A stretch of DNA of 64,000 nt from Campylobacteraceae bacterium (GCA_026988975.1 JALSKH010000048.1:23466-87465), one strand, 5' to 3'; shown: positions 2,683 through 39,403, numbered from the stretch's first letter. Translations and numbers: made by a program. Notes: generated from the letters alone by a model not told the origin.

Positions 2683-2772
2683 ATATCATATCTCTTTTAA
2701 GGTCATCTCGTGAGGCTCAGACCAACGGGAGGATTTGCCCTCTAAGAGATGACCTTAAAAGAGATATAATAT
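2683..2772 (+). repeat. Family A hairpin element, copy A1
   Basis: Perfect 20-bp stem (2689-2708 with 2747-2766), extendable to about 26 bp with one mismatch. It encloses the 38-nt loop CGTGAGGCTCAGACCAACGGGAGGATTTGCCCTCTAAG. Homologous to 39324-39403 and 21373-21482. Confidence 0.85.
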
Positions 2773-2791
2773 TTAAGGAGATTATAACATA

Positions 2792-21366: not shown

Positions 21367-21372
21367 CATTAA

Positions 21373-21482
21373 ATCTCTTTTAAAATTATCTATTAGAAGG
21401 CAAAAGTAGCAAATGCGGTTGCGTAAGCAAACTTTCTGTGAAATACTCCTGCTGGTTTGAGTTTCAAGAGATAGTTTTTAAG
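21373..21482 (-). repeat. Family A hairpin element, divergent copy A3 with a ~37-nt internal insertion
   Basis: The arm ATCTCTTTTAAAATTATCT (21373-21391) resembles the A1 and A2 arms. The core is split: ATTAGAAGGCAAA (21392-21404) matches the start of the A core, and AATACTCCTGCTGGTTTGAGTTTCAAG (21442-21468) matches its end. The distal arm AGATAGTTTTTAAG (21469-21482) is degenerate. It fills the whole livF/72-aa-gene convergent gap. Confidence 0.6.
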
Positions 21483-21701
21483 TTAATGTTCCAAAAACTT
21501 TTTTGTTTTTTTGATTTTGTTCATAGCTTCCAAAATTTTTTGCTTTTCGCTTATCGCAAGTTTGGTTGCACCCTTTATGAGAGCTAAAGCTTCTGTGGCT
21601 TCTTCTAAGTTGTCAAATTTAGGCATTTCTTGGAGAACTTTACTTATATTTGTAAAATCCTCCTCTATGATTGCAACTTTTAGGGTATTAATCCAGCTCA
21701 A
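21483..21701 (-). CDS. hypothetical small protein (72 aa) downstream of fliS
   Basis: ORF overlapping the fliS stop. Helical and charged. No motif recognised. Confidence 0.5.
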   Translation of the reverse strand: MSWINTLKVAIIEEDFTNISKVLQEMPKFDNLEEATEALALIKGATKLAISEKQKILEAMNKIKKTKKFLEH

Positions 21702-31270: not shown

Positions 31271-31507
31271 CAAAAAGATAATGGTGCGAGTACAAGGCAG
31301 ATTTTCGTAGGACTAGCCATAGCTAATTCAAGAAAATCTAACGCCGTAATCGTGCCATTATCTTTTTGTCCGAAGGAAAGTTAGTAAAACACTCATCTGC
31401 TGCGTTAGAAACTCTTGATGTACAATAAGTACACCTGCGAATTTCTGCCTTGCATATAAGTGCTTTACTAGCTTCTATTGGTTGGCTTTACTTATGGTTA
31501 GGTACTT
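31238..31507 (+). mobile_element. Family B structured MITE-like element, copy B1
   Basis: 33-bp terminal inverted repeats (31238-31270 and 31475-31507, one mismatch). The 204-nt core forms two long hairpins (31271-31368 and about 31373-31474). It shares motifs and spacing with B2. Confidence 0.8.
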
Positions 31508-32676
31508 AGCAAACTCAAAACTGATATATAGGGTATGAAGATCATAGAGCTTATAAATACTAAGTAGGTTACCACTGTTGGTTTGCAATCAAATAGACTA
31601 GCTAGACTTACATTTGTTATGGCTAGAGGCACTATTAGCTCTAGTATGGTGATATTTAGTGGTAGTTTTTCAAGATGAAAAAGATATAAAATCAGCCATG
31701 CTATCAGGGGAATGAGTAGAAATTTGAGAGATAGAACAGTGCTTAAAATTTTTACACTTATCTCTTTAAATTTTATACCTTTTAGAAATATACCAAGAAT
31801 TATAAGCTGCATCACAATTGCTGTGTATGAGCCCATCTCTAAAGTTTTATATAGGCTTACATTTAACTTTACATCTAGAAAGTTAAAAATTAAAGCGATA
31901 AAAGAAGCTCATATAATCGGCATTTTAAAGACATTTAATACCGACATTTTTATGCTGTAACTTCCTCTAGAGTATATATAAACTCCAACTGTATATACAA
32001 AAAGCATGCTTACTGTATTGATTAAACTTGTGTATATGATGGATGATTTTGAAAAGAGGACGATTCCAAGCGGTATGCCTATGCTTCCTGTTATGCCTGT
32101 TACGCTTGACATTGAGACTATCGATATATCTTTTGGATTGGTGAAGAGTCTCTTTGCGATACTACTCGAAACGATCAGTGCGATTAGTGTGATCAAAATA
32201 TATAAAAAAGGGACTTTTAAAATACTTATATCTATCTTTTGTGTTAATAACTGACCTTACGCACTATAAGCACACCTAGGCAGAATGAGAAAGTATCATA
32301 TGCGAGGCAGTTTGCTTTTAGCGTAGCCGTAGCTACGGTAGAAGTAAACTAACGAAGCAGATGGTGCTTTATCATTCTGCCCTACGGATGATAAAATTTG
32401 CACCCTACTGCTGCGTCAGCATAGCTTCATAGTAGTATAACTACAATTTTGCTATACTTCCTTGCATTAGAGTGCAACTTTTATCACCTAGGTGTGCTTA
32501 TAGTGCGTAAGGTCAGTTAATAATCCCCAAAAAGAGAGGGTTGGCAATAAGAAATAGACATTTAATTTTACGATACTTTTTTCATTCAGCTCATCTTTGA
32601 GTATAACTTTGGCAATGTACCCAATAAGCACAAAAAAATATATAGAAATGATAGAAAAAAAATTATCTAGAAAAAT
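31498..32676 (-). pseudogene. AEC (auxin efflux carrier) family transporter, disrupted
   Basis: The N-terminal part (32524-32676, FLDNFFSIISIYFFVLIGYIAK...LSFWGLL) and the downstream parts (31498-32243) are colinear once B2 and one TSD copy are removed. There is also an in-frame TGA at 31909-31911, and the conserved N-terminus has no ATG (only ATT at 32674-32676). Confidence 0.85.
32251..32516 (+). mobile_element. Family B structured MITE-like element, copy B2, inserted in the AEC transporter gene
   Basis: Perfect 30-bp terminal inverted repeats CTGACCTTACGCACTATAAGCACACCTAGG (32251-32280 and 32487-32516). Flanked by the direct repeat TTAATAA (32244-32250 and 32517-32523). Removing it restores the reading frame ...SFWGLLTQKIDIS.... 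Confidence 0.9.
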
Positions 32677-39269: not shown

Positions 39270-39323
39270 ACAGACTACATTTAGAGAACTTAAAAGAAAT
39301 TAATGCTAAAATAGACTCTTGCC

Positions 39324-39403
39324 AGACTTCTTTTAAAACTATTTCTTAGAGGGTAAATCCTCCCGTTGGTCTGAGCCTCACGAAATAGTTTTAAAAGAAG
39401 TCT
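39324..39403 (-). repeat. Family A hairpin element, copy A2
   Basis: Perfect 21-bp stem (39324-39344 with 39383-39403). Its 38-nt loop is the reverse complement of the A1 loop with one substitution. Confidence 0.85.

Follow-up and report, generated by a model that had tools for sequence, protein, structure and literature searches.

The Correia elements of Neisseria (CREE or NEMIS) are the described repeats that come closest in organisation to the hairpin analysed here. They consist of an inverted repeat around a directional conserved core, with length classes that differ by a central segment (PMC2649163). Their target is duplicated, no transposase is known for them, promoters are created at their ends, and their transcripts are substrates of RNase III (PMC2649163). 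The window, as we call the whole 64,000-nt stretch of DNA from a Campylobacteraceae bacterium (GCA_026988975.1) that was analysed, contains a hairpin, A1, which is probably one copy of a family of non-coding, MITE-like mobile hairpin repeats of ~80 nt (~120 nt in the long form) with a Correia-like organisation. As in Correia elements, the copies are short, non-coding, dispersed, mostly intergenic and often 5' of genes, and inverted-repeat arms surround a directional conserved core. Similarly, length classes are set by a central segment (here a short form and a long form with a 40-nt insert), a target duplication is suggested (TA, in one clean pair), no transposase is known, insertions are polymorphic at the strain level, and transcripts can fold as long hairpins. 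However, the 26-bp terminal repeats of CREE are conserved, whereas the arms of older copies in this family are hypervariable and a 22-base apex is invariant across genera. The two also lack sequence similarity and occur in different phyla, and IHF binding, end promoters, and RNase III cleavage have been demonstrated for CREE, whereas the family described here is known from sequence alone.

The REP, BIME, and REPIN sequences, which are mobilised by RAYT, are likewise intergenic palindromic repeats that occur in many copies and are co-transcribed with their neighbours, and in BIME-1/RIP elements a protein (IHF) site lies between two inverted units. However, the REP stem is conserved, with a 5' GTAG, and its loop varies, whereas the present family shows the reverse and has no GTAG; the missing GTAG and the reversed conservation pattern speak against membership in REP/REPIN. 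Moreover, 3' ends and the spaces between convergent genes are where REPs accumulate and where the present family is rare. Rolling-circle origins have a conserved loop, which carries the nick site, and a variable stem, and together with integron attC sites they offer a parallel in that a folded single strand is recognised. Such sites differ from the present family in adjoining Rep or integrase genes or cassette arrays rather than forming dozens of solitary chromosomal copies, attC conserves the base of its stem and not the apex, and a TA duplication is not expected of them. A further parallel is a mutational process and not an element family: template switching in replication homogenises the arms of inverted repeats and inverts their spacers, and the compensated multi-base arm changes, palindrome extension (L031/L089), and loop inversion reported below are of the kinds documented as its products (PMC8794818, PMC8604942), whereas the invariant core and the dispersal are left unexplained by it.

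Copies in the window and anatomy of the family

A1 (short form, core on the plus strand) occupies positions 2683–2772 when the whole palindrome, including an outer ATAT/ATAT extension, is counted, and A2 (short form, core on the minus strand) occupies 39324–39403. The two hairpins are ~80 nt each, share a common apical sequence, and have compensated arms; the hairpin with a shared loop that the first-pass annotation had described at both places was confirmed, with the sequences as noted. In A1, the 5' arm (2688–2709) and the 3' arm (2746–2767) form an outer stem, P0, of 22 consecutive Watson–Crick pairs, the closing pair C2709–G2746 included, so that the stem is perfect as annotated but longer than the 20 bp assigned to it. 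The columns homologous to these arms covary across the family. A2 likewise has a perfect 22-bp stem (39324–39345 with 39382–39403). When the arms of A1 and A2 are aligned arm to arm, they differ at 8 of 22 positions, and every difference is compensated; the seven compensated transitions counted earlier (over 19 positions) are all present, and a T/G transversion at the outermost position had been omitted.

The apical module of A1 (2710–2745, plus strand) comprises junctions, a helix, the core, and a variable triplet, and reads GT-GAGG-CTCAGACC-AAC-GGGAGGATTTG-C-CCTC-TAA between the arms. The junction is formed by GT (2710–2711) and TAA (2743–2745), and the helix, P1, by GAGG (2712–2715) and CCTC (2739–2742); the core CTCAGACC (2716–2723), the triplet AAC (2724–2726), GGGAGGATTTG (2727–2737), and C2738 follow in between. 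The 38-nt loop originally drawn here (2709–2746) is indeed conserved in sequence, but it is not unstructured, since GAGG pairs with CCTC and this helix covaries. The idea that two GAGG blocks compete for a single CCTC finds no support, as the second GAGG never changes when CCTC does. On the minus strand, the A2 loop differs from that of A1 by one substitution (TTTGCC to TTTACC), and a 33-nt loop pattern matched A1 and A2 in the window and had no match in 100 shuffles. A1 folds at −44.1 kcal/mol (z = −9.45) and matches the covariance model with 100.7 bits, and the fold energies of both strands of A1 and A2 range from −38.7 to −46.3 kcal/mol (z = −7.9 to −9.5).

A1 is located between an EamA gene (Pfam) and a 115-aa ORF without a Pfam match, ending 20 nt before the ATG of the latter at 2792, in agreement with the annotation. 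A2 sits between a small ORF and gatB, and a plus-strand read-through transcript would therefore carry the reverse complement of the core. Further copies exist: many were found outside the window, and a third one within it, A3 (21369–21489, minus strand), belongs to the long subfamily and was matched at E ~0.003 by a model made from other copies. It is bordered by the 3' ends of an ABC ATPase gene on one side and of the fliD–fliS operon on the other, its core GAAACTCAAACCAGCAGGAGTATTT (21441–21465) has three substitutions, its arms are imperfect, and it carries the 40-nt insert at 21401–21440. The orientation of the core in the window is thus mixed, plus in A1 and minus in A2 and A3.

The core CTCAGACC-NNN-GGGAGGATTT was found in at least 180 distinct intergenic copies, in 32 Campylobacterales species genomes and many metagenome contigs. 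A degenerate core pattern gave 68 loci in 32 species-representative genomes, all of them MAGs labelled Sulfurospirillum, Sulfurimonas, Campylobacteraceae, or Campylobacterales, and a second pattern, with the central triplet left free, gave at least 119 metagenome stretches. Pooled with the window, these scans returned at least 185 distinct pattern matches, of which at least four are chance matches in GC-rich contigs. No copies were found in viral contigs or plasmids. For orientation, the GatB protein of the window shares 84% identity with its counterpart in Sulfurospirillum sp. 1307 and 88–89% with those of several uncultured relatives.

Across the family, the outer stem measures ~18–25 bp and can have almost any sequence, with complementary arms in nearly all copies. 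The junction between stem and apex sets the subfamilies: GT/TAA (A1 and A2), fully paired AAAAA/TTTTT, purine-rich GTA/GGA, and GCGACGA/GGAGGAGT, the last of which carries tandem G.A and A.G. The apex reads CTCAGA-CC-NNN-GG-GAGGATTTG(Y), and its core is invariant in about 180 copies, a constancy that partly reflects how the copies were found, as both collection scans required the core. The central triplet is free (AAC in 100 copies, AAA in 26, GCA in 15, GTA in 13, GAA in 13, and others). The 4-bp helix P1 covaries, occurring as GAGG/CCTC, GAGA/TCTC, AAGG/CCTT, TAGG/CCTA, CAAG/CTTG, GGGG/CCCC, and AACG/CGTT. In one copy (L142), a C-to-G and a G-to-C change occur together and keep the CC/GG pairing, which supports a CC-NNN-GG mini-hairpin at the tip. 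The long form of ~120 nt contains a conserved 40-nt insert between GGATTT and G(Y)CCTC, which is present in six copies (A3, L002, L105, L111, L139, and L154) from three junction subfamilies and itself includes a variable-loop hairpin (TTGC/GCAA).

Across 91 distinct copies in a structure-guided alignment, 26 of 26 pairs showed two-sided changes, in line with the original view that the apex is constrained in sequence and the stem only in pairing. In this alignment, which was fitted to the model and so favours structure somewhat, 94.4% of cells are paired, compared with 58% in shuffles and 41–52% in slid controls; covariation is also seen in a 13-sequence subset. The arms of younger copies are near a consensus, GACTTCTTGCAAAAC...GTTTTGCAAGAAGTC bounded by TA on either side, and the consensus arm TA-GACTTCTTGCAAAAC recurs in many genomes, whereas most older copies have unrelated arm sequences.

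In Rfam 15, searched at gathering and at permissive E-values, only RNase P RNA and tRNA were matched in the window, and A1 and A3 gave generic microRNA-hairpin matches far below threshold, so the statement that the element is no described RNA family still stands. Nor is the loop a piece of an RNA gene, as checked against the RNase P RNA and tRNA-Leu of the window (Rfam/ARAGORN), which has no rRNA gene. Resemblances of the core to tmRNA, the 3' end of 16S rRNA, and the tRNA D-arm are short. Open-access full text yielded neither the core sequence nor any account of a comparable element in Campylobacterota. As far as the literature and Rfam were searched, the family is therefore undescribed, and it belongs to uncultured relatives of Sulfurospirillum and Sulfurimonas.

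Two other repeats were observed in the window. The RNase P RNA match (639–1069) measures 431 nt against a 367-position model and includes two identical 75-nt segments (653–727 and 806–880), each of which forms a perfect 18-bp hairpin with arms CCTGCCCATACTTTTTTA and TAAAAAAGTATGGGCAGG and a 31-nt AT-rich loop. They may reflect duplication or insertion within rnpB, or else an artefact of assembly. In addition, two hairpins of equal geometry (31271–31368 and 32389–32486), with 23-nt arms that are ~87% complementary and a 52-nt spacer, lie 1.1 kb apart and may represent another repeat family.

Insertion, inheritance, and loop inversion

Several lines of evidence show that the element moves. Near-identical copies with the same arm mismatches are found in different flanks (L082, L091, L095, L113, and L120). 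At the gatB and mogA loci, which were sampled by protein homology, the element was absent in nine of nine relatives examined. The gatB spacer has no element in L188, L189, L192, L193, and L194, whose GatB is 88–89% identical, and in L188 and L192 the site is occupied by an unrelated, coreless hairpin. Upstream of mogA, ten genomes carry the element, whereas L196–L198 have an empty spacer of 9–24 nt and the genes overlap in L199; these four genomes, which include Sulfurimonas denitrificans, were chosen by MogA similarity alone.

To find empty alleles, the fetched DNA was also searched with the joined flanks of each copy. L089 proved to be an empty allele of the site filled in L015, L017, L031, and L059, and L113 and L095 are empty alleles of the site filled in L091 and L120. 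The empty L113 reads GTATAG-TA-ATAGATACC, and the filled L091 reads GTATAA-TA-(GACTTC...GAAGTC)-TA-ATAGATACC, a single clean pair that fits a TA duplication. In the older pair, L031 and L089, an inverted copy of the flanking T-run is seen rather than a simple duplication: in L031, an A-run mirroring the native T-run borders the element and looks like an extension of the palindrome into the flank. Defective copies occur as well, one with three core substitutions and an internal duplication (L157) and one that has lost the core by deletion (L161). A crude half-site search, a weak one, gave only noise and neither an autonomous partner nor a transposase candidate.

Resident copies are inherited vertically, and their arms change fast yet remain complementary. 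Clustering by flanks placed the copies in 30 ortholog groups, the largest of which comprises the ten loci upstream of mogA, with flanks 84–91% identical. In these ten copies the arms differ at more than half of their positions and still pair perfectly, the triplet differs, and the spacers can barely be aligned, and all 22 fixed core bases are intact. Since close pairs (L084/L099 and L020/L162) have similar arms, the group reflects descent and not repeated re-insertion. By our own estimate, the chance of an intact 22-mer under spacer-like drift is about 1 in 1000 per lineage. Moreover, ten of ten secondary copies, encountered without selection on the core in DNA fetched for other reasons, show at most two mismatches in 18 fixed positions, and in copies recognised from their arms alone the core is mostly intact. 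The mogA orthologues and the secondary copies thus indicate that the core is under real constraint. Paralogs within a genome differ at 30–40% of their arm positions, which argues against a recent burst.

The loop can also be inverted in place. Between L066 (6301–6382) and L186, the 150-nt flanks are 99–100% identical in a reverse-complement arrangement and the hairpin is 100% identical, implying that the apex flipped relative to its surroundings between near-identical genomes. The same is seen in L031/L059 (flanks 92–96% identical), L126/L128 (81–85%), and L049/L053 (65–69%). An assembly artefact across a 25-bp inverted repeat is conceivable for one such pair and unlikely for all four.

Further rearrangements were noted beside these loci. 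In the gatB leader, the coreless hairpin of L188 (1925–1975) differs from that of its near-identical relative L192 at the tip only, ATCTTATGTA-CTATAATTTTATAA-TACATAAGAT against ATCTTATGTA-TAA-TACATAAGAT, which is a palindromic expansion of the template-switching kind. These coreless hairpins suggested that the core alone might insert into existing hairpins, an idea that was set aside because no coreless family with consensus arms was found, except for one deletion derivative. In L011 (1485–1815), two copies in inverted orientation are separated by ~250 nt, and another inverted repeat, GGTAAAATCTTYAGT, flanks the pair; at the same locus, L042 (2260–2360) has a single core with one arm from each copy, so that its arms are unpaired, and represents the outcome of recombination or deletion between the two L011-type cores. 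Finally, the young copies in L091 and L120 lie, as do the corresponding sites in L113 (50–160) and L095 (4170–4280), within a palindromic repeated sequence of ~100 nt, GGAATGACATAGCACCGTCAT...ATGACGGCTTRGCGTCAT, which looks like a member of another repeat family of these organisms, unrelated to the first.

Genomic setting and competing explanations

All real copies are intergenic, and typically the hairpin starts ~20 nt past a stop codon and ends 20–40 nt ahead of a start codon. Counting ortholog groups once, the core is antisense in 37 and sense in 21 of the co-directional gene pairs, and in subfamily I, which includes A1 and A2, the orientations stand at 10 against 9. Divergent genes enclose 26 ortholog groups and convergent genes six. 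The 86 proteins encoded downstream fall into 137 Pfam families of ordinary housekeeping character with no common theme, and this diversity of neighbours ruled out a regulon or riboswitch.

No −10 box was found at a fixed distance from the hairpin ends, and a T-run follows the stem, in either orientation, in 4 of 156 copies compared with 3 in the control; a standalone small RNA was ruled out on these grounds. An oriented RNA gene or cis-regulatory RNA is likewise disfavoured by orientation, by promoter and terminator signals, and by gene coherence. Boxes resembling −10 elements are about twofold enriched 3–13 nt upstream of the hairpin base, including at A1 and A2. At A2, an extended −10-like box, TGCTAAAAT, can be read 11 nt upstream of the hairpin (39304–39312, plus strand), and it is kept as TGATAAAAT in the orthologous spacers of L188, L189, L192, L193, and L194; with this box as promoter, the gatB transcript would have the A2 hairpin at its start. 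At A1, the candidate extended −10-like box is TGTTATAAT (2781–2789, minus strand), which lies at a distance of ~8 nt from the hairpin's right end and points through the hairpin toward the EamA gene. A sigma-70 scan gave no match at A1 and A2; it requires a −35 box and is uninformative for organisms without −35 boxes.

Separately, the extended −10 box TGMTAAAAT at 39304–39312 is conserved together with an upstream TTTAGAGAACTTAAAAGAAATTAA in the window, L188, L189, and L192–L194, and the two are likely the gatB promoter. Each lineage has a differing hairpin, or none, directly downstream of this conserved box.

Clues to the strand that matters are conflicting. On the core-sense strand, G.T outnumber A.C mismatches by 100 to 33 overall; this excess is confined to positions 10–15, next to the junction, and beyond position 16 the counts are 18 and 13. 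An assignment of the strand from this excess was dropped, as the outer stem does not show it and the long-form insert points the other way. The purine-rich G.A/A.G junction loops and the G.T excess near the junction favour the core-sense strand. The opposite strand is favoured by the insert, whose GCGG/CYGY helix pairs via G.U only there and whose hairpin loops are GNNA-like on that strand, and by the weak orientation bias toward transcripts with the reverse complement of the core. Likenesses of junction and core to kink-turn, hammerhead, twister, and pistol motifs were compared by eye and dropped, with no Rfam support.

The main alternative, possible although doubtful, is that the hairpin is a structured non-coding RNA module of leaders and intercistronic spacers, with an apex bound by a protein or the ribosome and a long stem that protects 5' ends or serves as an RNase III site, and that copies spread and were kept for that purpose. 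The very strong covariation in both helices would fit such a module, as would the variable triplet inside conserved helices, the compensatory mini-hairpin change in L142, the tandem G.A/A.G junction motifs, the modular insert with its variable-loop hairpin, the long-term retention of the core at orthologous loci, the proximity of copies to ribosome-binding sites, and the enrichment of −10-like boxes upstream of the hairpin base. However, both orientations are retained with the core unharmed, the loop is flipped between closely related genomes and such a flip would destroy an orientation-specific RNA site, the neighbouring genes have no functional coherence, the element has no promoter or terminator of its own and no Rfam relative, and the outer stem lacks an asymmetry of G.U over A.C. 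In addition, template switching explains the covariation equally well (PMC8794818). As compensated arms and an inverted loop are what template switching yields, covariation alone is no proof of RNA function here, and the earlier claim that such a pattern is the sign of a functional structured RNA, and not of a repeat or MITE, is not supported, since the element bears the marks of a miniature mobile repeat.

A second explanation, which we consider rather improbable, is that the hairpin acts as folded single-stranded DNA or a cruciform whose apex is recognised or cut by a structure-specific enzyme (for instance a recombinase or a nuclease of the HUH/Y1 type), the enzyme itself causing mobility and loop inversion as at rolling-circle origins. 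A conserved loop on a variable stem is typical of HUH origins, the C-G-closed purine-rich triplets (GNA and AAN) and tandem G.A are stable in DNA hairpins too, mobility is shown, and function appears to be independent of orientation relative to genes. However, HUH transposition leaves no target duplication, whereas a TA duplication is seen in one pair; Rep, Y1, and recombinase families are absent from the 25 Pfam families found most often among the 86 downstream genes, a weak test; and orientation within the window is inconsistent.

The apex reads GGGAGGA, which resembles a Shine–Dalgarno sequence, in one direction and UCCUCCC, which resembles an anti-Shine–Dalgarno sequence, in the other, and the latter likeness, pointed out in the first-pass annotation, is real at the level of sequence. 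It is improbable, but compatible with the strain-level flip in L066/L186 and the long retention of both orientations, that the inversion of the apex loop is a functional two-state switch and the apex a docking module for a putative factor. If so, a flip of ~30 nt at the apex would swap GGGAGGA for UCCUCCC in the leader of the adjacent gene and would allow dozens of housekeeping loci to be controlled heritably and reversibly with no dedicated invertase.

We regard as very unlikely a selfish palindrome free of constrained function, in which the core merely seems invariant through the search method and recent spread. Both collection scans did demand the core, defective copies exist (A3 itself having three core substitutions), and loci are frequently empty in relatives. 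Nevertheless, all 22 core bases are retained in the ten mogA orthologues, whose arms, triplets, and spacers are saturated; the ten secondary copies and those identified by arms alone largely keep the core without having been selected on it; and the divergence of paralog arms within genomes does not allow a recent burst. An intrinsic terminator or attenuator, suggested by a long, stable intergenic hairpin often ~20 nt past a stop codon, can be dismissed with near certainty, given that T-runs are no more than at control level, a terminator scan had no match at A1 or A2, and copies are rare between convergent genes.

A probable miniature mobile repeat with a conserved tip

The dispersal, the insertion polymorphism, the apparent target duplication, the defective copies, and the indifference to genes and orientation together point to a miniature mobile repeat, which is the probable nature of A1. 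The copies are smaller than 300 bp, non-coding, and dispersed, they have terminal inverted repeats and polymorphic insertions, and the same element occurs at unrelated sites, all as in MITEs. Conservation in an ordinary MITE is concentrated in the terminal repeats, since these are bound by the transposase. What speaks against a MITE is that this pattern is reversed in older copies, whose arms are the least conserved part and whose centre is the most conserved.

The behaviour of arms and loop may be explained mainly by template switching between the arms during replication, which would copy a change from one arm into the other and could invert the spacer. Selection that keeps the hairpin able to fold probably contributes as well. 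Purifying selection, in turn, would keep the 22 fixed apical bases, the 4-bp helix, and the CC-NNN-GG mini-hairpin. The apex is thus probably a docking site for a putative trans-acting factor that reads the folded strand, as DNA or RNA; this factor may be the enzyme behind the mobility or a host protein by which the element was co-opted. Given their position ~20 nt after stop codons and 20–40 nt before start codons, most copies are presumably co-transcribed, and the RNA would then fold into long hairpins within leaders and intercistronic spacers. Such hairpins in transcripts may be a general by-product, comparable to those of Correia, ERIC, and REP elements, rather than a gene-specific switch.

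The family adds a Correia-type hairpin repeat to a phylum in which open-access full-text searches turned up none. Perfect covariation in a 22-bp stem coexists here with mobility and loop inversion, which warns against taking compensated stems as proof of an RNA gene, and the family is a good system for measuring the concerted evolution of inverted repeats driven by template switching. The reversed conservation, with an invariant 22-base apex on free arms, points to a putative factor that reads the tip of the hairpin. To our knowledge, the mode of movement of Correia elements is not yet known, and identifying the putative tip-reading factor could reveal how repeats without a transposase move.
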